The notes under the pieces are model-generated. The model was given only the letters and a program-made list of their open reading frames with translations. It did no database searches and was not told where the DNA came from. Shown piece after piece: positions 4,442-61,026 of a stretch of 64,000 nt of DNA (positions are counted from its first letter, which is position 1; the number at the start of each line of letters is the position of its first letter). The position numbers and the translations under genes were made by a program. Source of the DNA: Nitrospirota bacterium (GTDB lineage Bacteria; Nitrospirota; JACRHJ01). The DNA lies in contig CAVTDB010000003.1 of the NCBI GenBank assembly GCA_963733375.1, forward strand, positions 64,001 to 128,000. The letters run 5' to 3'.

Positions 4442-7400
4442 TCACTGCTTCTTTTTAAACAGGCTTTCATCCATCTTGACCCTCAGCCTGAAGTACGGCC
4501 CCTGCCCCCAATAGCTGTCCTGTTTCAGGTCCGCGTCGAACCGGTCGAAGGAGTATCCCAACGAGAACCAGAGGTTTTTTATCACCCTGTAGCCCACCTC
4601 GGCGGAACCGCCGTGCAGGAGCGAGCCGGCTTCCGCATTGTTCATCAGCCTGTACTCAAGCCCGACATCCACGCGGTCCGTCAGGTCGTAGAGCATACCC
4701 ACCCCCGCGAGTTGCGTATACGAGCTGATGCCGCCGTCGCCCGTCAGCTTGCCGGCATATTTACCGGTGAGCTGCAGTCTCCTGGAAGCCTGCATGCACC
4801 ACTCCGTCGATGTGATTAACGACAACGTCCTCAGGCTGTCGGTAAGTGAAGAGTTATCGTCGTACTTGTATTCCAGTTTTAAAAAGCCGTCCAGCCTGTC
4901 GTCATCGACCGGCCTGTAGGCTCCGCTCACGGAAGTGCGGTTAGTGGTACGTTTGCCGCCGGTGCCGATATCTTCCCTGCTGAAACGCTCCTGGAACAGA
5001 AGGGTCATCGATTGGGCCAGCCTGTACGCCGTGCCTTGTTCTATCAGGTAACTGTCGTTACCCGTGGCGGCAAGCTCGTGCCTGTACTCGACCCTTCCGG
5101 TCGCCTTCAGGTCTTCCCTGATCAGGTACTCGAGCCCGGCTGTGGCGGCTACGGCGTCCGCCTGGGACTGTATCTGGGGCCCGCTTAAGGTCCTTAAGTA
5201 TTCTACCGACGTACTCCCGTTCAGCTTATCGGTAAGCTTGAAGGTATTCTTCAGGCCTATGACCTGCTGGTTCCTGCTGCCGTCCGCCCCGTCGTCCAGG
5301 CGGTACTCGCTGTATCCGCTGACGCCCTTCATCAACTGCGTCTCCGCGCCGACGACGGTCCTGGCCTGGCCCTGTATTTCGGTCTTCAGGTATTCCTCGC
5401 GCACGTATAACTTGCTTATATCGCTCAGTTGATATTTCAGCCCGGCCGACGTTGTCAAAGTCCTTGCCGCTCACGATGTCCTGCTTGTGGGTGACGTCCA
5501 GGTCCAGCTTCGGGAAAAGCTGGGCACTCAATGTGATCCCAAGACCGGCGAACTTTTGCCAGACGTACGGACTGCTGTCGAACGGCAGGCGGCTGTTCGG
5601 GTCCGTGGGCGGGATGAACTTTGTATTGGAGGTCTCGCGCTCAAGCTCTAATGTGAGCTTGAACTTATTGAACTTCATCTCGGCCCCCAGGGAGACCAGG
5701 TTGTTGCTTGTCGCGTTAAGTTTGTCGTCGTCGCTGAAGGCCTTCATCCGGAAGACCACGCGCTCCCACGGCTCGTAACTCGCCTCCCCGCCGTACTTGG
5801 TCGCGCCACGGAAGACGTCGGTCGCGGAGGGGTTGTTGAAGCCGTCGTCGGCCTTGTGGTAGTAACCGGATATTTTAAAATCCTTAAAGGGAGTGGACAG
5901 GAGGTCCACCGCATAGGCCGAGCCCTGCCGCCTGGACAAGATGCCGTCTGTCGCCGCCATCATCGAATCCGTGCTGGCAAATTCCGCCTTCAGGTCTGTC
6001 TTGTACGGAAGCTTCAACTGCAAGTCCGCGCCTTCCAGGCGGTAATCCCCGCCGTCCTGTTCCTCCACGGCGCCGGTGACTCCGGCCTTGACCCAGGGAA
6101 GCGGACTCAATGTCGCGCGGCCTCCGTAGATATAGTGCTTCGCCCCGTCCTGTATGCTCTCGTATACCGCGATTATGTACACCGGGTTCAGGTCGGCGTC
6201 GTGGCTCGGGACCGGCGCCTTGAAGAGTATCGTGCCCATCTCGATGTCGAGATAATAATCGCTCCCGCGTGCAAGGGTCTGCCGGTCGAGTACGATATCC
6301 GGGCGCAGGCGGTCGCGCGTTTCTATGCTGATCTGCTCGGAGCCCTCGACTATCGGCGACTGGCTCAGGTAGTAGAACCCCGATATGCCGAGGCCCGGCA
6401 AGGCGTCAACGACCTGCGTCTGGTCCGTATAGCTCGCGAAGCCGCGCACCCTGAGCGAAGACATGGGGTTTATGTCGGCTTGAATCCCCGTAAGCGTCCG
6501 CTTATACGCGGCGAGCTTTACGTCGTCGAAACCGGTGTCGTAGTCTCCGTACAGCAGGTACGACCTGTCCTTCTCAAGCTTGACATATAACTTGTCGGCT
6601 GATTTTGCCTCGTACCCCAGCTTGCTCTCGTCGCCGTATATCTGGTATTTGTTGTCCGCCTGATAGTCCGTCGCCGCCGCGTTCTGCAGGTCCGGAGTTT
6701 TCTTCTTGCCCGAGTCGTACGCCGCCGTGACATATAGGTTGTCGAACAGGTTCCCCTTGAGGAAGAACGCGCCGCGCTCCTGCGAGAACGCGCCCTTGTC
6801 GAACCAGCCGTCCATGCTGAGCGGGCTGAACGCGCCTCCCGCGGAGCCGTAGCCCACCTTGATCTCGCCGACGCCCGCAATCATTACAGGACGCTTCGGC
6901 GGGGAGAAGAACACCTTGAACGTCTCGGTTATATCCTCGACGGAGACGCTGACCGTGGCCTCGCCACTCCCGCGGGGCGACAGGATGTCGAACTCGGCGC
7001 CCTTCTCGAAATACGGTATCTGCACGCCCCCCTGGGCCTGGTCCATGTCCTTCTGGACGACTTCTCCCCTGGTCGTCACGATGGTGATGAACGTGGACGG
7101 CCGCGCCGGTTGCCCCTTGGCGTCCCAGGCGGTGACGGTTACGTGGAGCTTCGACACTCCGTCGGCCGGGACGTCGCTCTCGTCCGGCTTGACCAGCAGT
7201 TTGGCCGGCTTGACGGGAGCCTCGACCGTTACCTCTTTTGTCTCCCGGATGTTCCCGAACGGGTCCTTGGTCTCGGCCTTGATGAGCGTCTTGCCGGTCT
7301 CGCCGACCTTGACCCCTATGTACTCGTATACCGTTACGTTATTTGCTTTGTCTACTATCGTCTCGCCGACCCTGTTATGGCCCACGGGCTCTCCGTTAAC

Positions 7401-9606
7401 AAAAAGGAGCGCTTCGCGGTCCGACGCCGCCTTCACGACCACCTTTACGGCGCCCTTCGTTATAACTTCGCCTTCTTTTGGAGACAGTATCTCAAGGGCG
7501 GTGGTGAAACCCTTTATCTGTTCAGCCATGCTTTCGTCCGCTTCGGGCTTGTCCGCCGCGGGGGCGGACCCGGCATTGTCATTTGTCCCGGCCCGTACCG
7601 CGTCCGCCGGCGCCGTAACTGCGAAATCCGCCCTGACCAGCCCGCTCGACTTCATGTCGATGAACTGCGAGCCGCCGTCGCCCATGGACCGGTTTGATGT
7701 CGGCACGAGCGCCGCGCCGCCGGGCAGGGACAACGTGTCTACCTTCAGGACGTGGGTGCCGGGGTCAACGTAGGGTATCGAGTACTTGCCGTCCTTGTCG
7801 GTTATCACCCTGGCTGCCATTCTCCAAGTAAAGGACCGCGCCGCCCAGGCCTTTCTCGCCCGCCTGCCGGAAACCGTCGCCGTTGCCGTCCAGGAACACC
7901 CTGCCTATTATCGTGCCTTTAGACGTGAATACGCCCTCGCTGATGGTCAGCTTGAACGATGCCCTCATGGATACGGAGGCGCCGGCGACGGCATAGGCGA
8001 CGTTAACGCCGTCGCCCTTCATGCTGTCCGGGCCGACGATGGCGCTGTAACGGAGCTCTACGGTTTTCCCCGCGGCCAGGTCGCCGATATGCCAGACGAG
8101 CGACTGGCCGTCCTGGCCCGGGTCCGCCGCCTTGACGCCGCCTATCAGTGTGGAGCCTTTGACATAGGGGACGTCATGCGGCATGCCGTCTCTGACCTGC
8201 ACGTCGTTTAGCGCGGTCTTGGCCGTTGTTAGTCACAGTGACCGTATAATGCACCACGTCGCCTATCGAGACAATGTTCTTGTCCGCCGTCTTGGTAATC
8301 CCCAGCGCTGTCCTGGGCGGGTCCACCGGTATGTCGAAGGTCACCGGGCTCATTCCGGCCGCCAGGGTAAAACTCTGGCCACGAGACCCGGCGCCAACCG
8401 TGTAGCCCGGCGGCAGCTTCGGCGTTGGCACTTTGGACGGGAATATGTAACTGCCGCCGGGCTCGACCTTGAGGCGGTAAGTCCCGGCATCCAGGTACTG
8501 GAACTGGAACTTCCCGTCTGCGCCTGTCGTGATCGGGTTTGACTGCGCCACAAGAAACGGCGTCAGGGGCAAGGCGGCCGGCAGGCCGGTACTTATCGTC
8601 TATGAGCGTCACGACCGCGCCCGCGACGGGCAGCCCGGTAGCCGTGTCGAAGACCGTGCCCAGAGGGTCCACGAACACATTGTCGTCATGTGAGGGGACG
8701 GCGTCGAGCGGGTCCGTGTATATAACCTCTATCGGCGTGTACGGCTGTATCGAGAGTATCCCGTCCCCTGTCAACGGGGGCCCGGAATTGGTCGGGAGGT
8801 TGCCTACGAACACGCCCGTGTTCGGGCCCGTTTCCTGGCACGTTACGGCCTCCTGGTCGTCAACGCTCCTGGAGCCGCCGGGCAGGACTGCGTAGTGGTA
8901 CACGGTGACGGTTATGGTGTCGATGGCCGCCGGGTCGATGTTTCGATCAGGGTCCGTCACTTTTATATATGAGATGTCGCCCAGGTTATAGCTGTAGACC
9001 CTGTTGTATGAGGAATCAGTAAAAATCACGACTCCCGGCGTCCGGGCCTTGACCGTCGTAGTCGCCGTCCGCGGTGCTGGCCGCGCCCTCGCTGCATGAG
9101 GCGTGCACGGTATCCGGTATGACAGTGTTGTTCGCCGCATGCTTGTCCACCGCCACCGTTAAATGCACGGTCGAGGAAGAGCCGGGAGCGAGGGCGCCAA
9201 CCGTCCACGCCACGGATCCGGAGGCGTATGCTCCACCAGAGTCCGCGCTGACAAAAGTCGTGCCCGACGGGAGCGTGTTCTTCAGAGTCACGGCGGAGAG
9301 CGGGTCACTGCCCGGGTTGCTGGCGTTGATGGTGTATTCTATGTTATCGCCGGCCCATACCACGTCCGCCGCCGATATTACTACATTTATGACGGGGGCG
9401 GTTACCGTCAGGCTGGCACTCGCGCCCTCCTGAGGCATGGCGACGTTCTTTTGCGTCTGGTAATCGCAGGTCGCGTTATTGACCACTTGAGCGGCTCGGG
9501 CCGGGGATGCGGCAAATGCCCACATGGAGGCGCAGGCGAATAACAGGAGGACGAAAATGCCCGCCTGCCGCCTTAAACTCTCCTGATATGCAGTTATTGC
9601 CGCCAT
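4442..9606 (-). CDS. Large secreted DUF11/SdrD-B/Ig-domain protein with C-terminal outer-membrane beta-barrel (about 1700 aa; split by about 5 frameshifts)
   Basis: Consecutive overlapping ORFs 9016..9606, 8229..9140, 8174..8572, 7765..8202, 5226..7820, 4442..5458. Signal peptide ending ARA, DUF11 motifs (GDNIEYTINASN; ITKTAD..GDVVHYTVTVTNNG), SdrD-B-like IIGRVFLDGNGDG..ITDKDGKYS, and an aromatic-rich amphipathic beta-strand C-terminal half ending YFRLRVKMDE. Confidence 0.8.
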
Positions 9607-9654
9607 TCTTCCTTTACCGCTGGTCCATTAGCCGTTCCCGCGGCAGTCAGCGAA

Positions 9655-10917
9655 TCAGTTGACTGTCGCGTCGAACGTCACTGCGGCAGTGGCGCCCGCG
9701 GCGATCGAGTTGATATTGACCTGTATAAGACTTCCGGCGGGGTTGGGCTGCGTGAGTCCGTTCAGCTTTAATGTCCCCGCCTTGTATGTGACAGGCAGTG
9801 CGTTTAAATCATCTTTTATGACGACGTTCCCCGCCGCGTCATTACCCGCATTCCGCGCGGTGATGGTATATGTAACGGTATCTCCGGGTTTGGCCGAGGC
9901 CGGGCTTACGGCCTTGGTAGTGCTTATCGCCGGCGAGAGGACGGTAATACTTACCGGCGCCGAATCAACCGGCGAAGCGCCGTCCGCGGCGGCTTCCGCC
10001 ACGTTGCTGGCGCCCGCTCCGCTCAGGCTGACCGCCTGGGCGTGGTTCGATGGCCTGTTGATATTGACGCTGAACACCAAAGTCGCGGTCGCGTTCGGGC
10101 CGAGAGTCCCGACGGGCGCCGTGATGACGTTACCGGACAGCAGGCTGTCGTTCTGCGCCACTGTGTTCAGCTTGATTGAGCCGCTTACGAACGTCGATAT
10201 CCCGAGGACGCTTCCTATGTTGTCGGTGACGGTGACGTTCGTCACGTCGGATGTCCCGGCGTTTCTTACCGTAATCGTGTAAGTAACGGCATCGCCGGGC
10301 GTGGGGTTGTTATTGCTTACCGACTTCGTTATCGTCAGTACCGACCCGCCGACTGTCGTCTGAGACTCCGGGGATACGCCAAGGACGGAAGTATTGCTGG
10401 TGGATGTGGCCCTGGCGTCGTCGTTTGAGCGCGTGTTTGCCGCCGCGCTCCCGGGTATGGGCAGCTTCATATACACCAGCATGGACCCGCCCGCGGCGAT
10501 AGGCCCGATCGGCGCGGTAATCAAAGACGACGCGCCCGGGTCGGAAAAGAACTGGACGGCGCCGGGGTTGAACGTGGATGCGCCCGCGTCGTGATCAGAT
10601 GACAGGGTGAACGAATCGGCGGCGTTGCCGGTGTTGGTTACCGTTACCGTATAAACCACGGATGCCCCGGCTGACCCGGAAAGCGTGGCCGGAGCAATCA
10701 GGACGCTCGCGCCCTGCTTTTGCAGTATGGTGACGTCTACCGACGCCGACACCAGCGGCATCGGGTTGCCGCCGCTGTCCCCGTAACTGACGTTGGCGGT
10801 GTTAACCAATGGCCCTGGCGGGGCGACCGCGGCCATCGCCGGGCAATAGCCCAGAAGCGTGGCCGTGAAGGCGGCCGCCAGTACCGTTAAAAGTTTCCTG
10901 ACTATTCTATTGCCCAT
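9655..10917 (-). CDS. Secreted DUF11-domain protein, 420 aa (putative minor/shaft fibre subunit)
   Basis: Signal peptide, N-terminal LVNTANVSY...SASVDVTI segment, Ig-like domain, one complete DUF11 domain and a C-terminal truncated DUF11 ending VTFDATVN. Confidence 0.85.
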   Translation of the reverse strand: MGNRIVRKLLTVLAAAFTATLLGYCPAMAAVAPPGPLVNTANVSYGDSGGNPMPLVSASVDVTILQKQGASVLIAPATLSGSAGASVVYTVTVTNTGNAADSFTLSSDHDAGASTFNPGAVQFFSDPGASSLITAPIGPIAAGGSMLVYMKLPIPGSAAANTRSNDDARATSTSNTSVLGVSPESQTTVGGSVLTITKSVSNNNPTPGDAVTYTITVRNAGTSDVTNVTVTDNIGSVLGISTFVSGSIKLNTVAQNDSLLSGNVITAPVGTLGPNATATLVFSVNINRPSNHAQAVSLSGAGASNVAEAAADGASPVDSAPVSITVLSPAISTTKAVSPASAKPGDTVTYTITARNAGNDAAGNVVIKDDLNALPVTYKAGTLKLNGLTQPNPAGSLIQVNINSIAAGATAAVTFDATVN

Positions 10918-10951
10918 AAAAGCTCGGATTTGCCTCGTGCTCGGAATAGAT

Positions 10952-10987
10952 AAGCCGGCCGGCGGCCCTTGGGCCGCCGACCGGCTT
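10952..10987 (-). terminator. Strong GC hairpin just downstream of the 440-aa subunit gene (mRNA stabiliser or partial terminator)
   Basis: aagccggccggcggccc-tt-gggccgccgaccggctt: 17-bp arms with one non-Watson-Crick position (G-U in the minus-strand transcript); only a weak U-tract. Confidence 0.65.
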
Positions 10988-10997
10988 CCGACTCGAC

Positions 10998-12320
10998 TTA
11001 GTTCGCGTTTACCGTTACTCTGTAGAAGAACTCCGCTTTGCCGGTCAAGGCAGGAAGTGTGCCTCCGGTCACATTTCCGGATACGACGCCGGCAGCAAAA
11101 GTAGGCGCGCAGTTAAGCGGGTTTATAAATGGTACGCTATCCGCTCCCGCGCCATCAGACGCTTGCAATATTTTGCCGAACGTCACGAAGCCCGACAGCG
11201 TATCGGCGATAACCACTGCGTTTGCGACGTCGTGCCCGTTGTTGGTCACCGTAACGTGGTAGTTGATCGTGCCGTTGGGGAGGGCGGAGGACACGTCGGC
11301 GGTTTTCGTCACTGCCAGCAAAGGCGCGTCGACTGTCACCACAACTGCGGGCGTGTCAAACTGCGGCTCCGGAGTCGTATCGGTGCCGGACTTGTAATTG
11401 ATGGACGCGACGTTAGATAATGTCGTACCGTCCACTATTCCCGGGGTCGTGTTTTTGATCTTGCCGGTTATGGTGATGTCGGTCTCGCCATTAGTCGAGC
11501 CGGCCTTGGCAGCCACCGTTTGAGCGCTGGACGTGAATACGTTGCCGGAAAACGTCCCATAGGTGCTGGCGAGCGTGTCGATGTCGGCGGGAATCGTGTC
11601 CGTTACGACCACGCCGGTAGCGCCTACCGTGCCCGAGTTGATGAGCTTTATGGTGTAGGTGATGGCCTGGTTAGCCTTGTAGTGCAGTCCGGCCTGGTCC
11701 ACCCCCTTGGTAGAGCCGGTGAGGTTGGCCGAGTCGGTGGTCGTGGTCAGCGTGGTGGTATCGAAGACCGGGGCGACCGTTCCGCCCGTCGCGTCCTTCG
11801 TGTTGGTGGTGGACGTGGCTTTAATGGCTTCCGTGTTGCTCGTCGGGGCTACGGCGTCCGGGATAACGATATGCACCCAAATCTTCTGACTCCCGCCCGC
11901 CGCGATCACGTCCGTGGTGGAGCCTGCAAGGACTGTGGACGTTTCGGTGCCGCTTCCGTTGTCACGGTAGAACGTAAACGTAGTCGGGGTCCATGCGCCA
12001 CCCGAGGTATTGGACATAGTGAAGCTGTCCGACGCGTTACCGACGTTATTGACAGTTACCGCGTAGTCCACCGTGCCCAGGTTGTTGCTGAGTATCGTGG
12101 ACGGGGACGGGGTGAGGGTCACGCCGTAGAGATAGGTCACGGACACGGTAACCGAGGCGGTCACCGGAGTCATGGCGTTGGCATTTACGTCATTGTAAGT
12201 CGCTGAAACTGTATTCGTGATATTACGGCTGAAGGTCGCGGTTGCCGCGAAGGCGTTGCCTATGGCGAATAACGCCATTATGCAGGCGATGGACAGAGTG
12301 ATCGAAATCTTCTTAAACAT
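10998..12320 (-). CDS. Secreted DUF11-domain protein, 440 aa (putative major fibre subunit)
   Basis: Signal peptide ending AFA, strong RBS (AAAAAAGGAGA), N-terminal ITNTVSATY...TASVTVSV, one complete and one C-terminally truncated DUF11 ending FFYRVTVNAN. Confidence 0.85.
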   Translation of the reverse strand: MFKKISITLSIACIMALFAIGNAFAATATFSRNITNTVSATYNDVNANAMTPVTASVTVSVTYLYGVTLTPSPSTILSNNLGTVDYAVTVNNVGNASDSFTMSNTSGGAWTPTTFTFYRDNGSGTETSTVLAGSTTDVIAAGGSQKIWVHIVIPDAVAPTSNTEAIKATSTTNTKDATGGTVAPVFDTTTLTTTTDSANLTGSTKGVDQAGLHYKANQAITYTIKLINSGTVGATGVVVTDTIPADIDTLASTYGTFSGNVFTSSAQTVAAKAGSTNGETDITITGKIKNTTPGIVDGTTLSNVASINYKSGTDTTPEPQFDTPAVVVTVDAPLLAVTKTADVSSALPNGTINYHVTVTNNGHDVANAVVIADTLSGFVTFGKILQASDGAGADSVPFINPLNCAPTFAAGVVSGNVTGGTLPALTGKAEFFYRVTVNAN

Positions 12321-12404
12321 GATTTTCTCCTTTTTTCTGTTGAACTTCGGTTAACTCGTTTTAAACCAAAAAACTAACCCAATCCTGATGTGTCACCTCC
12401 TTTA

Positions 12405-12924
12405 CTACTTAACCTTTACTTTGAAATTTACATGCCCGGACTCGCCGGGCTGGACATCCTTCTTTACGGTCCACTGAACCTGCGTGTACGCCTCGGCCGG
12501 GGCGGCCTTTTCCACAACCTTGCCGGACTTATCCTTCTGCTTGACCATCACCGGCGGCTTTTGGTACGTCTTGCCGCCGTCAACGCTGAATGCTATCTCG
12601 GTATTGCCGCCTTCAGCGCTCCCAGGCACGTATGCCGTGTTCTCCGGGACAGGGTCGATTATCTTCGCGTCCCTGGCAACGCTTTGACCCTCGTTTTTAT
12701 ACGTTATGGAATACACTACGGTGTCGCCCGCAACGACCTTCCCGGCGGGCACCAACGTTACGACCTCCTTGCCGTTCTTGCTTGTCTTCACCTCCTTTGC
12801 CATAGAAATAGTGAGTTTCAACTTTGGCCCCTGAGCGGCCGCCCAGGCGGATATGCCCGTTAACATGAATACCGCGGCGACTGACCAATATCGCCGCCTT
12901 TACCGTTCTGCCTGAAATACTCAT
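12405..12924 (-). CDS. Small basic single-DUF11 secreted protein (putative chaperone/assembly factor); frameshift within the signal peptide
   Basis: ORF 12405..12866 (AGDTVVYSITYKNEG, IIDPVPENTAYVPGSA, FSVDGGKTY, VNFKVKVK) plus likely start at 12924 (MSISGRT) behind a GGAGGGG RBS. Confidence 0.8.
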
Positions 12925-13071
12925 TTCATCCCCTCCATTGTTATGATTGTCATCACTAAAGCCCGCCTATGCCCGTTTTCTGCTTTCGGGCCTCCCCGGC
13001 ATGCGTCACGCGGTTTGTGCAGTACCGTCTTTTCAGGTTTGACTATAAATATCATTTGTCGCCTCCCTCCG

Positions 13072-16000
13072 TCAGTTAGGGTTGATAGTTACTTGTAAAT
13101 AGACTTTGCCCTCGCCGCCCGGCGCCAGGGTGCCGCTAACGATGAACACCGCGCTACCCCCGGACAGGTTGTCCGAGACCGGCGTTGCGGTGGCGTAGGT
13201 CGAGCTTGCGTTCCCGGCCCTCATGCTCCCGGTAACATACGACGTGTAGGTAGGGATATTGTCGGTTATGATTATTAAAGCGGCGTCGCCCGTGCCGTCG
13301 TTTTTGTAGTCTACCGTGTACGTAAGCGTGTCACCCGGTTTGGGCGTGGGCTTGTCTACCGTTTTTGTCAGCGTTATGTGCGGGTTCGTTACCGTAACCC
13401 CCGCAGTGCCGCCGGTGGATTGGACGGGGTATCCGGTCGGCGTGAACGATGCGTTATTGAGATACGTGCCGGATGCCGCAGCCGCCGTGGACTGGAAATT
13501 AAGCGTCAATGCGCCGGTCGCGGGAAGCGTCCATGAGCCGCTCCAGGTAATCGTTCCGGTCGTACCGGCAGGGTTGGCCGTCGTCATGCCCGTGGTCGTG
13601 CCCGTCCGGTATGAGAACCCGGCGGGGAGCGTGTCCGTGACGCTTGTGACCGGTATGCTCAAAGGTCCTGTGTTCGTCATGGTGATCGTGTAGCTTACCG
13701 TCCCTGCCGCCGTGGTAGTGGACGGGGACGCGCTTTTGGTTATGCCGAGCGCAAAAACGGTCACGGGCGCGGTGTCTCCGGTGGGGTAAGTCGTCTGCCC
13801 GCTAACCGTCCATGTAGCGTTATTGTAATATGTGCCCGTTGTCGGGCCTGCATATGCGTGGAAGACGAGCGTCAGCGAGCCGCCGTTCCTGCCGATAGCC
13901 CAGTTCCCGCTCCACGTAAGCACCTGGCCGGCCACGGCCGGGTTGTTAGTCGTCGTGCCCGTGGTCGAACCGCTTATGTAAGAGAACCCGGCCGGCAGCG
14001 TATCTACAACTCTTGTGACGGTCCTGTTGTTCCCGCTGTTGTTTGTCATCGTGATGGTATAGACCACCTCTCCGCCGGGCAGTACCGCCGAAGGGCTGAC
14101 GGTCTTGTTTATGTCATAGGTGGAGACGATGACCGGCGCCGTATTGGAGATAGTCTGCACCCCGCAGCCCGTCGCCGTGAATGTCGCAGTGGGGTTGTTA
14201 TACGTACCGTTCGTGTTGTTCACGGTGACATCGAAATTGAGCGTTAAGGTGCCGTTGGCGGGCAGAGTCCAGGAGCCGTTCCATGTAAGCGTTCCGGTCG
14301 TCCCGGTCGGGTTGTTCGTCGTCATGCCGTCGGTCGTGCCGCTGACATACGTGAAATTGCCTCCGGTCGAGTTGAGCGTATCCGTCACCCGTGTGACGGG
14401 TATGTCAGACGGGCCTGTGTTTGACAGCGTAATCGTGTAGGTTACCGTCCCGGCGTGGGCGACCTCGCCCGGAGCCACCGTCTCGGATATGCCCAGGTGG
14501 AAGACCGTAACAGGCGCGGTATCCCCGGTTGACTGGACCGGATAGCCGGTCGGGGTGAAAGAAGCGTTGTTGTTATACGTGCCATCCGTACCGCTCGCCG
14601 TGGCGGAGAAGTTAAGCGTCAGCGTGCCGCCGTTCGCGGGCAGCGTCCATGAACCGTTCCATGTAAGCGCCTGGCCGGCCACGGCCGGGTTGGCGGTCGT
14701 CATGCCGGTGGTCGTGCCCGCATTGTAGGAGAACCCCGCCGGGAGCGTATCCGTTACGCTTGTGACCGGTATCGACGCGCTGCTCGGGTTTGTCATCGTG
14801 ATGGTATAGGATGCGGTCCCGCCGGCAATGACCGAGGCTGAGGCCGCGGTCTTGGCTATGTTTAAATGAAAAACCGTAACGGGGGCGGTCGGGCCCGTGG
14901 TAGTGTCCGGATATCCGGTGGCGGAAAACGACGCGTTGTTGTTATACGTGCCGTCGGTAGAGCTCGCCGCGGACTGGAAGTTGAGCGTGAGGGTTCCGTT
15001 CGCGGGCAGCGTCCAGCTTCCGTTCCACGTGAGCGTCTGCCCGGCCACGGCCGGGTTGGCCGTCGTCATGCCGGTCGTCGTGCCCGTCTTGTATGAAAAG
15101 CCCGCCGGGAGGGTATCTACCACGCTTGTAACTGTCGTGGCGGAGCCGCTGTAGCTGGTCAGGGTCATCGTATAGCCTACGGTACCGCCCGCTATGACCG
15201 CTGACTGGCTCGCGGTCTTTGCCATTTTTAGGGTAAATACGCTGACAGGCGCGGTCGGTCCTGTGGAGGTGCTGGGGTATCCGGTGGCTGCGTAAGATGC
15301 GGTGTTGGTGAAAGTCCCCACGGACGAGCCCGCGGCGGACTGGAAGTTGAGCGTGAGGGTGCCGTTCGCGGGCAGCGTCCAGCTTCCGTTCCACGTGAGC
15401 GTCTGTCCGGCCACGGCCGGGTTGGCCGTCGTCATGCCGGTAGTCGTGCCCGTCTTGTAGGAAAAGCCCGCCGGGAGGGTATCTACCACGCTTGTGACAG
15501 TTGTGGCGGAACTGCTGACGCTGGTCATTGTAACCGTGTATGTTACCGTCCCGCCGGTCTGGACAGTGGACGGGGTTACCGTCTTAGCCGCCGAGAGGTT
15601 AAGTATCGCGTCGGTATCCGTGGCGGTGTTGTTTGTCAGGACCGGGTCCGTAGTGTTGTACGGGGGATTGACCGTGACGGAATTCACGATTGTCGGGCTG
15701 CCTCCCTGTACGGTCCCTTGCAGCGTCAGCACCGCACTCTGCCCGGAGGCGAGGTTGATCCCGCTCCAGTACTGCGTCGTGCCGTTGTATATGCCCCTGT
15801 CCGGGCTGAAGACCGGGCTCTGGAGGTTTGCCGGGATTGTGTCCCTTACCCAGCAGCTCGATATGCTGCTCGGCCCGTTGTTGGTGACTGTTATGATATA
15901 GGTGGCCGCGCTTCCGGGCAGAGCCGTCGTCTGGTTGTCGGTCATTGCGATTGACAGGTCCGCCTGGGGGGTGAGGGCGTCGCTGTCAGTGGCCGCGTTG

Positions 16001-18297
16001 TTCGCTGAATTGGTGTCCGTAATTCCCGGCGGCGGCGTTACGGTCGCGGTAACAGAGAGCGTCCCCGTGGCCGCCGGGTCTATGGTACCCGCAATGGTAA
16101 GGGTAACGTGCTGCCCTGACGCGAGGCTCAGGCCGGTCCACGCGCCGGTGCCCGAGTTGTACGCCCCGGTCGAAGCCGTATATAAAGGGGACTGTACCGA
16201 AGTTGGCAGGGGAACACTCAGCGTAAGGCTCGTAACGGCGCCCGGCCCGTTGTTGGTGACCGTGACGGTATAGCTGTCGGCGTTGCCTGGTATGATGCTC
16301 GTCACGCCGTCCGTTATTGCTACGCCGAGGTCCGCGTTGACGGGAGATGTGCTTCCGATTGCCTGCACGGAAGGGTCCGTCCCGGCGGTGCCGTTGGGAT
16401 AGATGGTGGCCGTGTTGGTTATCGGCAGGGAGGCGGTCGGGCACGTCGATTTGAAAACGACCGTGACCGTATCGCCGGCATTGACCACGCCCGATGCCCT
16501 GCCCGGGCCGTTTATCAGCCGGCCCGGGGTCGAAAAAGGCATGTTCCCGCCCACGTCGGCGACGGCGCCGCCGTTCATTTTCGTGGACCCGGCTACATAT
16601 GCCGTGCCGGCGGGTATGCCGTCAAGAAGCCACGACCCGGCAGTGTTCGTCAGGCCGGTATTTGAAGCCGTTATGGTCCATGTGATAGTCGCCGTGCCGC
16701 CGACGGTGCTCACGCTCGCGGTCTTGGCGGTATCGAGCCTGTCTACCAGCGTCGCGGTCGTGTAGTTGGAGGTCGTGGTAGCCTGGAGAGGAGCTGACAG
16801 AGCAGTTGGTTAAAAAATTGTACGTCCAGCTCGAATTGGTGACATAAGACGCAGCCGCGGGCGAGGGCGGCACCGCATTAACCGCTGCCTGGTACTGGAC
16901 CCACAACTGGGCGCCCACGGCGATGCCGCCGATATTGAAGCCGGCGGATGGGTTTGCGCCGGACAATGTGGTATAGGTGACGCCGTCCGTGCTGGTTTTC
17001 GCGGTCCCAGGGATGAACGATGTATACGGCGGCGGGACTGATGTATATATCACGTTTTGCGCGCTTGTCGAGCCGGCGGTGTTGTCGAGCCTTGTAGTGT
17101 ATGTCAGGGTATCGCCCACATGGGTCGTTGTCTTGTCGACGGTCATGACGGTTGTGGGGAAAGTTGGCGCGCCGACGTCCACCTGTATTCCGATGGAGCT
17201 TATGGTGTACGCGTCCTGGTTTGAAGTACCCTGGGCGCTGGCCTCGGTCTGACCGTGCTGGAGTATGCCGGAGACGTCAACGTTTGTTATGTCCCAGCCA
17301 TGACGCGTCCCATTTGTGGCCGCGCCGCTGCCAGTGGTGGTGGTAGGTGTGTCGTTCAGGCTGCCGAACGTCCCGGACGTATCGACGGTGCCGTTGTCCT
17401 TGTTTATCTGGCTTGCGAAGAAGTTGCTCGCAAGGTTGTTCGGTCCGGATACCGGCTGCATGGCGCCGACCGGCCCGAAAAGCATCTGGTCGCCAGCGAT
17501 GAACGAGTCGCCCTCCATGGCGCTTACCATCAGGCGGGCGTTTATAGTGCCGGCGCTGTTCACGCAGAAGCCGCTCACCGCGTATCGCGGAGGAGTACCC
17601 GCTCGCCGCGTGAACTCGCAGCCGACGAATACAGACATGCTCCTTATCGGCAGGGTGGTGTTCCTGTAGACCACCGCGAGCGTCCAGCCCGCGCAGTTGC
17701 TGTTGTTTTCATTCGGGTCGCTCGTCGCTGGGACGCCGCCCACGGTGTATGTCCCGGCGCCGGCTGACTGCACGTAGGCGGTCACGTCCGCCGAAGCCGA
17801 CATAGTAGTATTGGCCTCCGGTATCCCCGGTACGTCTTTTGCCGTCGCGGCATCAGGCGCGACTGAATAAGTGCCGGAGGGTGTCGCCATCGTTACGCTG
17901 CTGTCCAGCGACGACGACACGTTCTGGTTTGCGGTCTGCATAACAGCCGCCCCAGATAAGCTCGGCGTAAAGGATGGTGCTCCCCGCCGGTATGTTGAGC
18001 TGCGCTGCTGACGAGTTCTGGGACCACGTGAGTGTCGTCCCGGCCGGATAATGTGCCGACCTGTGAAGAAGGGTTGGTGGTTATGAATGCGCCTATGGCG
18101 CCCGCCGCTCCAGGGTTGTTCTGGTTCGCTATCTTGTCGAGACCGAGCGTGTTGCCGGTAAAGGTCATTGCGCCCGTGTCGACCGCCGTGAAACGCGTGA
18201 TATATGAGGCATGCGCCGGGACCGCGAGACAAAGGACCGCCATCGCCGCAAAGCATATCGCCGTAATGGCCGTGACTAAAACTTTTGACTTTCGCAT
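13072..18297 (-). CDS. Giant Thr/Gly-rich DUF11-repeat adhesin (about 1740 aa, about 11 DUF11-like domains; frameshifted)
   Basis: ORFs 17893..18297 (signal peptide ending AHA, then YITRFT..GAMTFTGNTLGL), 16622..18256 and 13072..16713 with repeated xKT..GGTVxYTITMTN..VxDTLPAGFSY..W..TLNF..NxA; last domain truncated at VYLQVTINPN. Confidence 0.85.
14500..15610 (-). repeat. Near-identical tandem DUF11-coding repeats inside the adhesin (period about 366 bp)
   Basis: gactggaagttgagcgtgagggt occurs at 14972 and 15338; protein repeat DTLPAGFSYxxGTTTGMTTANPAVAGQxLTWNGSWTLPANG. Confidence 0.85.
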
Positions 18298-18308
18298 ACT
18301 TTTAATCT

Positions 18309-18530
18309 CTATACGCAGGAGTTAAACCGCTTGATCCGGTCGTCCAGCCAGAACTCTTCCGCCTGTGCCAGACGTGCAAAGTCCAGCGACCCTACGATAT
18401 GGCGTTCCGCATCGGTTAAGTCATACCCCTCTTCGATGCAGACCGCGTCCAATTCACGTGAAGCCCTTTCACGAAAACTAGCATCGGTAACAAGGCGCCC
18501 GATGAACTGCTCTACTGCTTTTTGAGACAT
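18309..18530 (-). CDS. Small NHLP-clan (Os1348/Franean1_4349-like) protein, 73 aa
   Basis: MSQKAVEQFIGRLVTDASFR...GYDLTDAE matches my recollection of the family pattern (IGRxxTDxxFR..GYxLTxxE); GAGG RBS; first gene after the sigma54 promoter. Confidence 0.7.
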   Translation of the reverse strand: MSQKAVEQFIGRLVTDASFRERASRELDAVCIEEGYDLTDAERHIVGSLDFARLAQAEEFWLDDRIKRFNSCV

Positions 18531-18604: not shown

Positions 18605-18620
18605 AGCAAGAGTCGTGCCA
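18605..18620 (-). promoter_or_regulatory. Sigma54 (RpoN) -24/-12 promoter driving the DUF11 operon
   Basis: Minus strand reads TGGCAC-GACTC-TTGCT, an exact match to TGGCAC-N5-TTGCW, 75 bp upstream of the ATG at 18530. Confidence 0.9.
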
Positions 18621-18847: not shown

Positions 18848-20236
18848 CTAATTATCTTTTTCCATTGACGTTTTTTTCCGGTTGAACATCTTCCGGTTAA
18901 TCTTCAGACGCTGTGCGGCAAGCGACTTGTTGCCGTCGCAGCTTTTCAGCGTCTCCTCCAAAACCCGGTTTACCACGGCTTCGAGAGAAAGCTCGCCTTC
19001 ATTAAATTTGAGATGGAAGTCCACGCCGCCATCCGATGCGGCCTTGTTGTCTTTATAAATTACGAGGTGCTCCGGGCGGACCAGTTCTCCGTTTACAAGG
19101 ATAGCGGCCCGCTCCAGACAGTTTCGCAGTTCCCGTATATTTCCGGGCCAATCATATGCCATGATCACTTCCATGGCCTTGCGGGATATTCCGGGAAGGT
19201 CCTTTCCCTGGTGTTGGCGGAATTGGGGCAAAAATTGCTCCACGAATAACAGGATGTCTTCCTTCCGTTCTCTGAGAGGCGGGATAACGATGGGGAAGAC
19301 ATTCAACCGGTGGAACAGGTCTTCCCTGAATTTTCCCTGCCGGACAAGGGCTTCAAGGTCCCGGTGGGTTGCCGCGATTACGCGGAAGCCAACCGGCAGC
19401 AGCCGGTCGGAGCCGATTTTATAATAGACGCGCTCCTCAAGGACCCTGAGGAGCTTGACCTGGAGGGGAAGCGGCATGTCGCCTATCTCGTCTAACAGCA
19501 TGGTGCCGCCATCGGCCAGCGCGAACTTGCCGTCCCTGTCCCTGTCGGCCCCGGTGAAGGCTCCCCTGACATGGCCGAAAAGCTCGCTTTCCAGGAGGGT
19601 TTCGGGGACCGCCGCGCAATTGACCGCCACGAAATTGGACGGCATGCCGCCGCTCGCAAAATGGATGTCCCGCGCCAGGACCTCCTTTCCAACTCCGCTT
19701 TCGCCGTAGATGGCAACGGTGGTACGCGGCGAGGCCGCCACCATTTCAGCGGCTTTCAACGCCTCGCTCATAGCCGGGGAATGGGTCATTATAGACTGGA
19801 AAAGGTGGCGGCTTACCACATATTCCTTGAACTTCTTATTCGAGCTGTTCTCTATCGTCAGACGGCCAAATTCCAGCGCCCGTTTTATTACCACGTCCAG
19901 TTCGTCGCGGGAAGCAATCCTTTTTCAGGTAATCGAATGCGCCGCTCTTCATGGCTTTGACGGCTGTCTCCACGTCGCCCTGGGCGGTAAAGATAATAAA
20001 CGGCGTATCGGATCCTTTTTCGCCCGTAAAACGCGAGCAGCTCCAGTCCGTCCATCCCCGGCATAACGAGGTCGGAGATAATAAGCTGGTAAGGCTATCC
20101 TTCTCCAAGGAGTGCAATTGCTTTTTCCGCGGAGCGCGCCAGGGTAATCTCGTACCCAAGGTCACTCAACTGGCTCTTCAATAATCTGGCGCTGGCTGGC
20201 GTTGTCTTCCACGATGAGGATGCGGGCGGCGGTCAT
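18848..20236 (-). CDS. Sigma54-dependent response regulator (NtrC family REC-AAA+-HTH); frameshifted REC domain
   Basis: Start MTAARILIVEDN at 20236; GESGVGKE Walker A, ESELFGHVRGAFTGA, LLDEIGDM, WPGNIRELRN, C-terminal Fis-type HTH GNKSLAAQRLKI. Confidence 0.92.
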
Positions 20237-54839: not shown

Positions 54840-57800
54840 TTAATCGGCAGCGAAAGTCACCAATATCGTATGAGGCGTGGTTACATTAATGAACGTATAG
54901 GAAGTTGTCGTGGTCACAGGGCTTCCGTCCACCGTGAGTGTATCTACGTGATATCCGGCTTTGGGGATGATGGTGTAAGTCTGGTCCGCACCGCTGGTCA
55001 CCGCTCTCACGCCGGGAGGAGAAATGTTGCCGTTTGCGCCCGCTGTGGCCGTGATCGTCGGGATAAACGCCGCGGCTATAGTGTGGTCAGCCTGCACATT
55101 CGAGAATGTGTAGCCGGTCAGCGCCCCTTTGGAAGTCCCGTCGACCGTCGTGCTGCCCATCGCATAGCCGCTCGCTGGTGCAATGGCAAAGGTCTGGCTG
55201 GTGCCCTGCACCACTGCGGTGGTCCCAGGCGTTATGCTGCCGTTTGCGCCCTGGGTAACCGTTATGGTAATCGTCGAATTCTGCGCGAAGGTCACCGATA
55301 TCGTATGAGGCGTGGTTACATTAATGAACGTATAGGAAGTTGCCGTGGTCACAGGGCTTCCGTCCACCGTGAGTGTATCTACGTGATATCCGGCTTTGGG
55401 GATGATGGTGTAAGTCTGGTCCACGCCGCTGGTCACTGCTCTCACGCCGGGAGGAGAAATGTTGCCGTTTGCGCCCGCTGTGGCCGTGATCGTCGGGATA
55501 AACGCTGCGGCTATAGTGTGGTCAGCCTGCACATTCGAGAACGTGTAGCCGGTCAGCGCCCCTTTGGAAGTCCCGTCGACCGTCGTGCTGCCGACCGCAT
55601 AGCCGCTCGCTGGTGCAATGGCAAAGGTCTGGCTGGTGCCCTGCACCACTGCGGTGGTCCCAGGCGTTATGCTCCCGTTTGCGCCCTGGGTAACCGTTAT
55701 GGTAATCGTCGAATTCTGCGCGAAGGTCACCAATATCGTATGAGGCGTGGTTACATTAATGAACGTATAGGAAGTTGCCGTGGTCACAGGGCTTCCGTCC
55801 ACCGTGAGTGTATCTACGTGATATCCGGCTTTGGGGATGATGGTGTAAGTCTGATCCGCACCGCTGGTCACTGCTCTCACGCCGGGAGGAGAAATGTTGC
55901 CGTTTGCGCCCGCTGTGGCCGTGATCGTCGGGATAAACGCCGCGGCTATAGTGTGGTCAGCCTGCACATTCGAGAATGTGTAGCTGGTCAGCGCCCCTTT
56001 GGAAGTCCCGTCGACCGTCGTGCTGCCCATCGCATAGCCGCTCGCTGGTGCAATGGCAAAGGTCTGGCTGGTGCCCTGCACCACTGCGGTGGTCCCAGGC
56101 GTTATGCTCCCGTTTGCGCCCTGGGTAACCGTTATGGTAATCGTCGAATTCTGCGCGAAGGTCACCGATATCGTATGGGGCGTGGTTACATTAATGAACG
56201 TATAGGAAGTTGCCGTGGTCACAGGGCTTCCGTCCACCGTGAGTGTATCTACGTGATATCCGGCTTTGGGGATGATAGTGTAAGTCTGGTCCACGCCGCT
56301 GGTCACCCCTCTCACGCCGGGAGGAGAAATGTTGCCGTTTGCGCCCGCTGTGGCCGTGATCGTCGGGATAAACGTCGCGGCTAACGTGTGGGCCGTCTGT
56401 ACATTCGAGAATGTGTAGCTGGTCACTGCCCCTATCGAGGTCCCGTCGACTGTCGTGCTGCCCATCGCATAGCCGCTCGCTGGTGCAATGGCAAAGGTCT
56501 GGCTGGCGCCCTGCACCACATCGATTGTACCAGGCGTTATGCTGCCGCCAGTACCGGCTGATGCGGTTATTGTCAACATCGATGTCGCTATAGTCATCGT
56601 GCCGATCGCGCTGCCTTGGTAATTGGCGTCGTTTATCGTGCCTACTACCGTATAGGTCCCGACCGCGGTCGGAGCTGTTGATGTGCCGTTATAGGTAAAG
56701 CTTACCGAGAGGCCCACAGGGCTGGTGGTAGCGCTTGCGCTCTTCGCGGTGCCATCGCAGGTTTGGCTCAGGCCGCAGAGCGTTACCGTGGCCGTACACT
56801 GGGCTATCGTCATAGTGCCCAAGGCGCTTCCCTGGTAGTTGGTGTCGTTGATCGTGCCCACTACCGCGTAGGTCCCGGCCGCAGTCGGGGCTGTCGATGA
56901 GCCGTTATAAGTGTACGTGACTGCGAGGCCCACAGGGTTGGTGGTAACCGTGGCGCTCTTCGCAGTCCCGTCGTAGCTATGGCTCAGGCCGCCGAGCGTT
57001 ACCGAGGCCGTCGCCTTGGCAATAGTCATCGGGCCGGTCGCGCTGCCCTGGTAGTTGGTATCGTTTATCGTGCCCACTACCGTATAGGTCCCGGCCGCAG
57101 TCGGAGCGGTCGATGAGCCGTTATATGTGTACGTGACTGCAAGGCCGTTCGGAGTCGTGGACACCGTGGCCGGCTTCGCAGTTCCGTCATAGGTTTGGCT
57201 CAGGCCGCTTAAGGTTACGGTAGCCGCAGCCTGCAGCACGTTTATCGTCACGTCCTTGGACGCAGTGTTGTAGTCGGTGGTGTCCGTCGGGGTAAAGGCC
57301 GCTTGCAGGGTCTGGCCGCTGCCCGCATTCAAGACCGCCCCGGCAGCCGGAGTGTAGGCAAATGAGCCGCCAACCGGGGTGCTGGCGTTCAGCTCGAGTC
57401 GCGCCCAGTGCCGTGCCGTAGGTGATGTCGGCGGGGCTGTTCCAGGTAATGACTGGAGTCGCCTTCGCTATAGTCAGCGTGCCCGAAGCGGTACCTGTAT
57501 AATTCGTATCGTTGACAGTGACGGCTACAGCATAGCTCCCGGCAGCAGTCGGAGCGGTCGATGAGCCGTTATAAGTGTACGTGACTGCAAGGCCACCCAC
57601 AGGGCTGGTGGTGGCCGTGGCGTTCTTAGCGGCGCCGTCGTAGCTCTGGCTCAGGCCGCCGAGCGTTACCGTCGCCGGCGCCTGGGAAACGTTTATCGTC
57701 ACGTCCTTGGACGCAGTGTTGTAGTCGGTGGTGTCCGTCGGGGTAAAGGCCGCTTGCAGGGTCTGGCCGCTGCCCGCATTCAAGACCGCCCCGGCAGCCG

Positions 57801-60800: not shown

Positions 60801-61026
60801 CTATGACATGCAGTCTCAGCGCCGGGATCGATGAGGTTTCCACGCCGCCGTCGCGTGCTACTATAGCCCCCACATCGACATATGAAAGCCCGGCAACCGT
60901 TTTTACTATTAAAGAGGTTTTCGGGGGGTCTGGAGGATCGGCGGCCCATCCGGCAGGAAGATAAGATAGAAAGAACAAAATGGATAATAACGGCAGTACT
61001 ACAATTAGCCTCTTGAACAGGCCCAT
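54840..61026 (-). CDS. Giant secreted S8 subtilase fused to MBG-like and InlB-B-like repeat stalk (about 2060 aa; frameshift near 57390)
   Basis: Signal peptide; catalytic triad ILDTGVD, NGHGTSLAG, SGTSASAA; MBG-like KSKTYGDSDP / LSQTYDGTAK..PTAAGSY repeats; C-terminal ITATAGANGNISP..GYHVDTLTVDG..HTIxVTF repeats. Confidence 0.9.
54845..56545 (-). repeat. About 4 near-identical 435-bp tandem repeats (145 aa, two-domain unit)
   Basis: tgRggcgtggttacattaatgaacg at 54871, 55306, 55741 and 56176. Confidence 0.92.
57130..59260 (-). repeat. About 4.5 near-identical 444-450-bp tandem repeats (MBG-like two-domain unit)
   Basis: gcccgaagc anchor at 57481, 57931, 58378 and 58822. Confidence 0.9.

Follow-up and report, generated by a model that had tools for sequence, protein, structure and literature searches.

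The 64,000-nucleotide stretch analysed here (the window) covers positions 64001–128000 of contig 3 (CAVTDB010000003.1) of a metagenome-assembled genome from a Nitrospirota bacterium (GCA_963733375.1; 81% complete, 26 contigs). On its minus strand, from 18620 to 4442, lies an operon of DUF11 proteins that would build a surface fibre. Translation and Pfam analysis identified, in this order, an adhesin, a small protein, two shaft proteins and a base protein with a C-terminal β-barrel (Table 1). DUF11 or its counterpart TIGR01451 was found in every operon protein (Pfam, NCBIfam), and PF01345 was matched above its gathering score by all of them except the 134-residue and 303-residue frame pieces and the barrel part, the adhesin reaching 366 bits over 10 stretches. 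The domain families of the shafts are DUF11, DUF7619 and DUF7507. The signal peptides of the operon proteins end in Ala-x-Ala and lack Cys. Pfam and NCBIfam searches of the operon and its neighbours gave no match to a chaperone or usher (PapC/PapD), a sortase, type II secretion or a type IV pilus, in agreement with an earlier first-pass annotation, made from the letters of the window, which had reported DUF11 domains and the absence of PapC, PapD, sortase and type IV pilus genes. The flanks of the operon encode a sigma-54 activator and sensor kinases.

Table 1 Features of the DUF11 operon and its surroundings, in window coordinates.
Feature	Position	Strand	Basis or remarks
Sigma-54 promoter, TGGCAC-N5-TTGC, perfect	18606–18620	minus	motif scan; 5' of operon
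73-residue cytoplasmic Nif11/Frankia_peptide-like open reading frame, first after promoter	18312–18530	minus	PF14407, E 1e-11, 45.3 bits, below cut-off 48
Adhesin: signal peptide, head domain without assigned family, ~11 DUF11, last truncated (acceptor only)	13072–18297	minus	three frameshifts
Small single-domain protein: truncated DUF11, no donor hairpin	12405–12924	minus	~172 residues with signal peptide; one frameshift near 12890
Shaft 1 (440 residues): signal peptide, donor hairpin, CARDB-like, complete DUF11, truncated DUF11	10998–12320	minus	
Shaft 1 donor hairpin, residues 34–61, invariant Asn36	12138–12221	minus	shaft alignment; modelled dimer interface
Shaft 1 acceptor domain, residues 332–440, invariant Lys339 and Asp373, no Asn hairpin	11001–11327	minus	
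Shaft 2 (420 residues), layout as shaft 1	9655–10917	minus	Pfam, NCBIfam, shaft alignment
Shaft 2 donor hairpin, residues 37–64	10726–10809	minus	
Shaft 2 acceptor domain, from ~residue 328	9658–9936	minus	
Base protein: signal peptide, donor hairpin, DUF11, CarboxypepD_reg-like, DUF11, SdrD_B-like, Big_1-like, C-terminal β-barrel	4442–9606	minus	five frameshifts
Base protein donor hairpin	9403–9486	minus	
Base protein C-terminal β-barrel	about 4442–6908	minus	
Sigma-54-dependent response regulator adjoining operon	18848–19894	minus	named by likeness to a 457-residue protein of a related locus (L011)

The first-pass annotation had proposed that the last domain of four operon proteins stops short of the two-strand hairpin that closes each internal DUF11 domain, and that three proteins carry such a hairpin free at the N-terminus. 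The four C-termini on which this rested (VYLQVTINPN, VNFKVKVK, FFYRVTVNAN and VTFDATVN, each followed by the stop codon) are all present in the translations, and the internal hairpin given as an example was located near residues 1083–1108 of the 1213-residue adhesin frame. To place the domain ends, a full-domain hidden Markov model (HMM) of 122 positions was built from five complete adhesin repeats. Internal domains reach position 116–122 of this model, whereas the last domains of the shafts and adhesins tested stop at or before position 97, and in every one of them the match ends just a few residues before the stop codon. The three N-terminal 28-residue segments align without gaps and share N3, Y9, M17, A22 and S23; in the wider family N3 holds, but Y9 becomes Y/F/W, and M17, A22 and S23 are local features. 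The truncated and hairpin-bearing proteins are thus real, although the adhesin, the 153-residue protein and the barrel protein are intact only if frame breaks are read through, as discussed below.

A second HMM, built from 41 hairpins of the family, scored at least 8 bits in 1 of 2728 unrelated open reading frames (ORFs) of the fetched loci as against 121 of 293 DUF11 or barrel ORFs, so that the pattern does not arise by chance. Scores were 12.7–48.6 bits on shafts and base proteins, some of which served as seeds of the HMM, and at most 4.1 bits on adhesins and small proteins (−3.3 and 4.1 bits for the two N-terminal adhesin pieces). Internal matches of at least 8 bits fell at the C-terminal end of a DUF11 domain in 17 of 17 cases, and the free hairpin runs into domain 1 of its protein in the same way as a DUF11 hairpin runs into the next repeat.

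According to the accessible text of a 2025 survey, in which DUF11 was renamed 'CLIPPER', a DUF11 crystal structure (PDB 9IFR) contains an intramolecular isopeptide bond between Lys715 and Asn806 catalysed by Asp748, and some DUF11 domains lack the bond (PMC12617251). A profile of ten shafts (27–84% identity) matched the Bacillus pilin BcpA (3kpt_A, E 5e-4), aligning the shaft Asp with a BcpA Asp replaced by Ala in the mutant entry 3rkp, and the Asn of the shaft hairpin with a BcpA Asn. We take these BcpA residues to be D312 and N383, the latter belonging to the K273–N383 bond. The 420-residue shaft also matched TIGR04226, an isopeptide-forming domain-containing fimbrial protein family (NCBIfam, E 3.9e-12); a PDB sequence search with the same protein returned an antibody chain at E 0.96 alone, and the CLIPPER entry 9IFR was not retrieved. 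From the CLIPPER structure, the BcpA alignment and the TIGR04226 match, the K-strand, D-x-LP and N-x-A motifs described at first pass are, as judged by sequence, the Lys-Asp-Asn isopeptide triad of DUF11.

In the operon this triad is divided between proteins. N36 of the hairpin and K339 and D373 of the last domain are invariant among the ten aligned shafts, and the last domain has no Asn, so by alignment the Lys and Asp of the terminal domain are on one chain and the Asn is on the next protein. The middle domain of the shafts holds a triad of its own (K205, nearly invariant, with D241 and N303). Among 31 base proteins (28–69% identity), the internal triad K323/D357/N420 occupies invariant columns and the hairpin Asn is likewise invariant. 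Across 53 shaft-like proteins of the wider family, the acceptor Lys, the acceptor Asp and the hairpin Asn were each found in 52, and the Asp was present in 46 of 47 adhesin acceptor domains. Complete internal domains from the same loci retain the full triad in 119 of 132 cases (base proteins) and 95 of 114 cases (other proteins), and the split domain thus appears as well equipped for the bond as intact domains are. Because the motifs correspond to the DUF11 isopeptide triad, the joint between subunits is probably covalent.

A complex of two copies of the mature 440-residue shaft (residues 26–440) was modelled from a 10-row alignment. Three runs scored 0.57, 0.56 and 0.56, compared with a best score of 0.00 for three controls with unrelated partners; in calibration, 20 of 30 solved pairs attained the mark set for this score, as did 1 of 23 single chains. 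Contacts agreed among runs to at least 90%, and the partner was predicted with a local distance difference test score (pLDDT) of at least 87. The confidently predicted interface places residues 32 and 34–62 of one copy against residues 332–348, 352–358, 364–379, 422 and 437 of the other, with residues 215–217 and 290–296 of the neighbouring domain joining in, and contains N36, K339 and D373. Strand 1 of the hairpin pairs antiparallel with the strand bearing D373 (40–42 with 367–371), which brings N36 beside D373 in the model. As the PDB holds no similar complex by sequence, the result is not a recall of a solved homologue. The docking of an N-terminal hairpin onto the C-terminal domain of a partner, which the first-pass annotation had expected of this homodimer, was therefore reproduced by prediction, with a donor of two strands rather than one. 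A fold search with the whole 440-residue model gave generic immunoglobulin (Ig)-repeat matches only (integrins, ciliary proteins; template modelling (TM) score at most 0.25) and was uninformative.

The arrangement is conserved in related genomes. Four relatives keep the order activator, adhesin (610–1127 residues), small protein (163–199 residues), a single shaft (425–444 residues) and base protein (1607–1751 residues), all with intact genes, and in each the hairpin is present on the shaft and base protein and absent from the adhesin and small protein. The base proteins are 69–86% identical across genomes, and the shafts of the relatives are 27–33% identical to the 440-residue shaft of the window. 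By sequence, shafts and adhesins appear to evolve far more rapidly than the base, which would be expected of exposed parts.

For a wider census, metagenomes were scanned with 11 closer sequences, and the best 80 loci of 470 confirmed relatives were retained; the census comprised locus L010 and 79 metagenome loci, with L011–L017 excluded for orientation or duplication and L075 lacking a barrel ORF. Acceptor calls by HMM alignment to within 15 residues of the C-terminus undercounted, since long loops break the alignment, and this procedure was replaced. Among 70 base proteins of at least 1400 residues that start inside their locus, none has an acceptor-type end, while 48 carry the donor hairpin at 10 HMM bits or more and a further 18 show it clearly by eye. 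The gene immediately upstream (70 evaluable) encodes a protein with donor and acceptor in 53 cases, acceptor only in 14, neither in 2 and donor only in 1. The second gene upstream is acceptor-only in 55 of 58 loci, with a median length of 175 residues, and the third in 21 of 24; the first DUF11 gene downstream of the barrel gene is acceptor-only in 25 of 26 complete cases. Where at least 3.5 kb of upstream sequence was available (55 loci), 45 loci have the order small protein, shaft, barrel, and in 33 a large acceptor-only protein is encoded to either side. The split domains and the polarity that they define are real, and both are widely distributed and conserved; the donor and acceptor assignments of the first-pass annotation carry over to homologous operons. 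Its further claim that tip, shaft and anchor are encoded in that order applies in part: the order small protein–shaft–barrel is fixed, but the adhesin gene may stand to either side of this set and is often found 3' of the barrel gene, so that tip–shaft–anchor is not a universal order. A large acceptor-only DUF11 protein is encoded directly 3' of the barrel gene in L034–L040, L042, L048, L050 and L052, and also in L063, L065, L071–L072, L076, L078, L083, L086 and L090. A variant order was seen in L085, L091, L093 and L096 (a ~330-residue donor-plus-acceptor protein, the small protein, a ~350-residue acceptor-type protein, then the barrel), as if the shaft had exchanged positions with a second acceptor.

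The base protein was examined through a model of the last 819 residues of an orthologue (G008), computed from 52 aligned sequences. The model (pLDDT 83.2, predicted TM score 0.78) contains ~38 long strands, with a small domain inserted at residues 175–235. Foldseek returned Deinococcus SlpA complexes as the best matches (E about 1e-8, TM 0.23–0.25), followed by MtrB, LptD and FimD, all with TM at most 0.27. With VIA-align, Occ porins scored Z 15 and FimD Z 13.4 (root-mean-square deviation (rmsd) 8.5 Å over 348 residues), level with porins, and smaller barrels matched the two halves of the model, 5–465 and 452–807, separately. The prediction is consistent with a large barrel without a specific relative, either one giant barrel or two in tandem. 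Pfam searches of the operon and its flanks found no match by sequence to the Usher or Autotransporter families. The inserted β domain (model residues 165–253, ~954–1042 of G008) matches a neck chain of phage DT57C (8hqo_R; rmsd 1.6 Å over 67 residues, 24% identity, Z 8.9), and may be a plug or lumen domain.

Some relatives of the base protein carry additional domains. A SPOR domain lies between the SdrD_B-like domain and the barrel in P0023 (residues 920–990, E 1.2e-9), and one replaces the DUF11 arm at the N-terminus of P0083 and P0122. SPOR domains bind peptidoglycan, and their presence connects this family of barrels with the cell wall. Four short members of ~1000–1100 residues (P0070, P0114, P0128 and P0145) have nothing but Ig-like domains ahead of the barrel, with neither DUF11 arm nor hairpin, and may reveal the function of the barrel by itself; one short member matches SlpA_C at 30.6 bits, below the cut-off of 35.

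The small protein also ends like an acceptor, and differs at the catalytic position, where 11 of 51 distinct sequences have Asp, 26 have Leu, 7 have Asn and 7 have other residues. The small proteins of the Nitrospirota clade keep Asp. Because the catalytic Asp is usually absent, the small protein is probably not an ordinary tip subunit, and the loss of Asp there supports a role for this residue in the chemistry of shafts and adhesins. The pattern suggests a protein that would hold a hairpin without forming a lock, serving as a cap or as a chaperone of inverse polarity.

These observations are consistent with a modular surface fibre of CLIPPER isopeptide domains in which, at each junction, one domain is split between two polypeptides. 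The upstream partner, an adhesin or shaft, would end after the F strand and contribute the Lys of the A strand and the catalytic Asp of the D-x-L-P motif, while the downstream partner, a shaft or base protein, would supply the missing two-strand Asn hairpin from directly behind its signal peptide. Insertion of the hairpin would complete the sandwich and bring Lys, Asp and Asn together, so that the Lys-Asn isopeptide bond normally made within a DUF11 domain would form between chains. The adhesin, an acceptor only, would occupy the distal end; shafts, with donor and acceptor, would chain head to tail; and the base protein, a donor only, would end the chain and be held in the outer membrane by its C-terminal barrel. 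The leading idea for export is that the fibre and the N-terminal arm of the base protein would pass through this barrel. From alignments and models we consider head-to-tail hairpin complementation, the interpretation offered by the first-pass annotation and borne out by the homodimer model and the homologous operons, the best-supported reading and very probable; the complete proposal of a split-domain DUF11 fibre, covalent lock included, is in our judgement fairly probable. We infer a long pilus as the product, its homopolymer length and its surface exposure. A bolder version is conceivable though rather doubtful: a self-ligating pilus of diderm bacteria, a natural counterpart of SpyTag/SpyCatcher, forming one covalent chain without sortase, chaperone or usher, with a barrel of ~38–40 strands exporting the fibre and the Asp-less small acceptor serving as a reversible chaperone of inverse polarity until the true acceptor locks the joint.

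The operon as assembled is interrupted by nine frameshifts in ~11 kb of coding sequence of the adhesin, small-protein and base genes. The adhesin is read in three frames (breaks near 18054, 17921 and 16762) and the base protein in six (breaks near 9069, 8586, 8222, 7810 and 5423), and a shift near 12890 has cut the signal peptide off the '153-aa' gene, whose likely start is the ATG at 12924 behind GGAGG. Window positions 5300–9700 were compared with contigs of four public runs (X1–X4) from soil, wetland and peat metagenomes; runs X5–X13 contain just minor portions of the sequence. At all five base-gene breaks, the contigs listed from these runs (90–99% identical) have one base fewer than the window, at 5453/5456, 7815/7816, 8222/8223, 8591/8593 and 9068/9071; the sites are not at long homopolymers, and a GGCC or CCGG context was noticed. 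Because the contigs of other runs have one base fewer, the five breaks are most likely insertion errors of the assembly and not gene decay. The adjoining sigma-54 activator has 348 residues in the window versus 457–459 in relatives and is probably frameshifted too, and a 109-residue ORF in another frame (19836–20165, minus strand) may be its receiver domain; the shortened activator points to one-base errors as a general feature of the assembly. The number of breaks would suit a decayed locus with pseudogenes for adhesin, small protein and base, an explanation that we regard as extremely improbable in view of the shorter contigs at every base-gene site, the general assembly problem indicated by the regulator and the intact genes of relatives. 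The genes are probably intact in nature.

The same head-to-tail complementation might leave the joint non-covalent, as in chaperone-usher pili, with Lys, Asp and Asn retained for folding or packing. Some DUF11 domains lack the bond (PMC12617251), and the small proteins mostly lack Asp. The residues divided between chains are nevertheless kept in 52 of 53 shafts each, at least as often as the full triad is kept in complete domains, and the loss of Asp from the small protein shows the position free to vary where the chemistry is not needed; we judge a non-covalent joint unlikely. A similarly low probability attaches to a fibrillar adhesin encoded piecemeal, a fixed stalk of three or four pieces (base, one or two shafts, adhesin) that is ligated after export and does not grow into a long homopolymer. 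Most loci have one shaft gene, the window having two, the model of a homotypic pair is silent on the specificity of donors for acceptors, and single-chain DUF11 stalks are common (PMC12617251) and exemplified by Litorilinea GhlA, a single chain of 6596 residues. Set against this are the clear separation of the homotypic shaft–shaft model from its controls and the presence of matching donor and acceptor on one protein, which leaves no evident stop to self-addition. Assembly between subunits would be unnecessary if the hairpin belonged to the first domain of its own protein or docked in cis, the operon then encoding separate DUF11 proteins of the surface or envelope beside an outer-membrane tether related to SlpA-type barrels. 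The hairpin strands reach pLDDT 70–84 in the monomer model without a partner, Deinococcus SlpA complexes are the best, if distant, fold matches of the barrel, and barrel-family members include one with a weak SlpA_C match and others with SPOR. However, adhesins and small proteins have an acceptor end and no hairpin, and base proteins have a hairpin and no acceptor end; completion in cis cannot explain such donor-only and acceptor-only proteins, and the continuity of the hairpin with domain 1 is that of an ordinary DUF11 hairpin with the following repeat. This reading is therefore very unlikely.

Several points weigh against the proposed fibre itself. The weakest link is the passage of the N-terminal arm and fibre through the barrel: SPOR domains in some base proteins imply that the segment preceding the barrel is periplasmic, and surface exposure of arm and fibre then requires such a passage, while a Pfam scan of operon and flanks found no export machinery encoded nearby. 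The complex-prediction tool may simply have reconstituted a well-known fold out of two chains; it was calibrated on alignments other than those used here; it was applied to the homotypic shaft pair, with adhesin–shaft and shaft–base pairs outside its scope; and the 440-residue monomer model is mediocre (pLDDT 68.5, predicted TM score 0.50). The loci of the census are not independent, several being near-duplicates. Of the 22 base proteins below the hairpin threshold, two are ambiguous by eye and two lack the hairpin, and 14 of 70 proteins encoded directly upstream of the base gene are without a donor hairpin, several of them beginning at the locus edge. The hairpin HMM reached 8 bits in only 16 of 276 complete internal domains, so the orphan hairpins appear to be a specialised subclass that, by score, only weakly resembles ordinary DUF11 hairpins. 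The tail of the full-domain HMM (~96–126) aligns at only ~5–6 bits with 36 of 53 shaft and 22 of 70 base N-termini, and with none of 54 small-protein N-termini.

The proposed fibre resembles chaperone-usher pili (type 1, P) in the completion of an incomplete Ig-like fold by the N-terminal extension of the next subunit, in the sequence of tip adhesin, shaft and terminator, and in a large outer-membrane barrel that holds the fibre. It differs in that Pfam detects neither a PapD-like chaperone nor a PapC/FimD usher in the operon, the donor is a two-strand hairpin of ~28 residues rather than one strand, the subunits have a DUF11/CnaA-like fold containing an isopeptide triad, and the terminating subunit itself includes the barrel, for which ~38 strands are predicted. 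Ushers are 24-strand barrels with a plug, and classical (type Va) autotransporters have 12 strands, unlike the ~820 residues and ~38 predicted strands here. Tethers of the SlpA/OmpM type have an SlpA_C barrel and a periplasmic N-terminus that binds peptidoglycan; SlpA complexes gave the best Foldseek matches, at the low TM scores given above. Like sortase pili such as BcpA, the shafts are strings of Cna-type isopeptide domains, in subunits that would be covalently joined; unlike them, the operon has no sortase, LPXTG, pilin motif or hydrophobic tail, its C-termini end after the F strand, its hosts are diderm, and the proposed link would be an autocatalytic Lys-Asn bond in a shared domain instead of an enzyme-made Thr-Lys bond. 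Subunits of type V pili are lipoproteins that require activation by a protease and donate strands from the C-terminus; as more than one is donated, two-strand donation is not wholly unprecedented. In the operon, by contrast, the donors are N-terminal, the Ala-x-Ala signal peptides lack Cys and there is no protease gene. Like the proposed fibre, type V pili of Bacteroidota use donor-strand exchange without chaperone or usher and have an outer-membrane anchor subunit (PMC13655056).

Splitting an isopeptide domain is familiar from protein engineering, where one piece holds Lys and the catalytic acid, the other holds the partner residue, and the bond forms spontaneously on docking. Engineered pairs of this kind are SpyTag/SpyCatcher, SnoopTag/SnoopCatcher and isopeptag (PMC6539128, PMC5333627). 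Those splits are man-made; the split here would be natural, repeated head to tail and fibre-building. Single-chain CLIPPER fibrillar adhesins such as Litorilinea GhlA have the same domain, triad and beads-on-a-string stalk, but consist of one polypeptide with intramolecular bonds (accessible text of PMC12617251).

Threads of the archaeon Sulfolobus are reportedly assembled by chaperone-free donor-strand complementation locked by autocatalytic intermolecular isopeptide bonds (PMC9715654). BsaA of Clostridium perfringens likewise combines chaperone-free donor-strand complementation with an autocatalytic intermolecular isopeptide bond, according to the accessible part of 10.1101/2024.11.04.621531. 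Both differ from the operon in having no outer membrane, a single donor strand and no barrel anchor, and belong to other folds or families (BsaA is TasA-like), and in neither does the bond derive from the splitting of a known intramolecular triad; no TasA-like family was found among the Pfam matches of the operon, and the assembly principle alone is shared with TasA/BsaA and archaeal threads. The first-pass annotation knew of no earlier description. This stands for the gene set, which is undescribed in the literature found, but the mechanism does not amount to a new category, since archaeal threads and BsaA already combine donor-strand complementation with an isopeptide lock. In literature outside subscription journals, no account of a subunit-assembled DUF11 fibre was found; the accessible main text of the CLIPPER paper (PMC12617251) contains neither 'barrel' nor 'strand complementation', and the accessible text of a 2026 review of bacterial surfaces mentions neither DUF11 nor CLIPPER. 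DUF1102 (haloarchaeal tafi) and F-ENA anchors also appeared as literature matches for DUF11 and donor strand; neither is relevant.

The barrel part alone retrieved 2879 clusters at E ≤0.001 and 1151 at ≤1e-30 (50% identity clusters). Members come from Nitrospirota metagenome-assembled genomes, Desulfobacterota (Smithella), Oligosphaeraceae, many Burkholderiales, Betaproteobacteria, Gammaproteobacteria and Steroidobacteraceae, and are named hypothetical, 'DUF11 domain-containing', 'SdrD B-like' or 'repeat protein (TIGR01451 family)'. In the ESM Atlas the nearest clusters are unnamed proteins of ~850 residues, mostly from Pseudomonadota, which we treat as a lead only. Isolates with the family include Sulfuriferula sp. 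AH1, Curvibacter fontanus and Rivibacter subsaxonicus, and with these harmless cultured carriers the system is testable. Five pilus assembly pathways are textbook knowledge; if the proposal is true, the operon would represent a sixth for Gram-negative bacteria, having no component homologous to the other five and a naturally split isopeptide joint. It would also provide a large natural library of orthogonal self-ligating tag/catcher pairs for protein engineering, and one answer to the role of isopeptide domains in Gram-negative bacteria, a question raised in the available text of PMC12617251.

Upstream of the operon, the sigma-54 motif is one of 2 matches in the window, versus 0.15 expected by chance, and also lies 5' of the adhesin gene in 4 of 4 relatives (L010–L013). 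The adjoining response regulator carries what we take to be sigma-54 activator motifs. Between the promoter and the adhesin gene, the 73-residue Nif11-like ORF has no signal peptide, and a conserved copy is present in the relative L011 (11972–12193, minus strand). The second perfect sigma-54 motif (60476–60490, minus strand) stands at the head of a gene for a very large secreted subtilase (Peptidase_S8; 54840–61026, minus strand) with many MBG and InlB-B-repeat domains, which is read as two overlapping ORFs of 1279 and 830 residues, probably through another frameshift.

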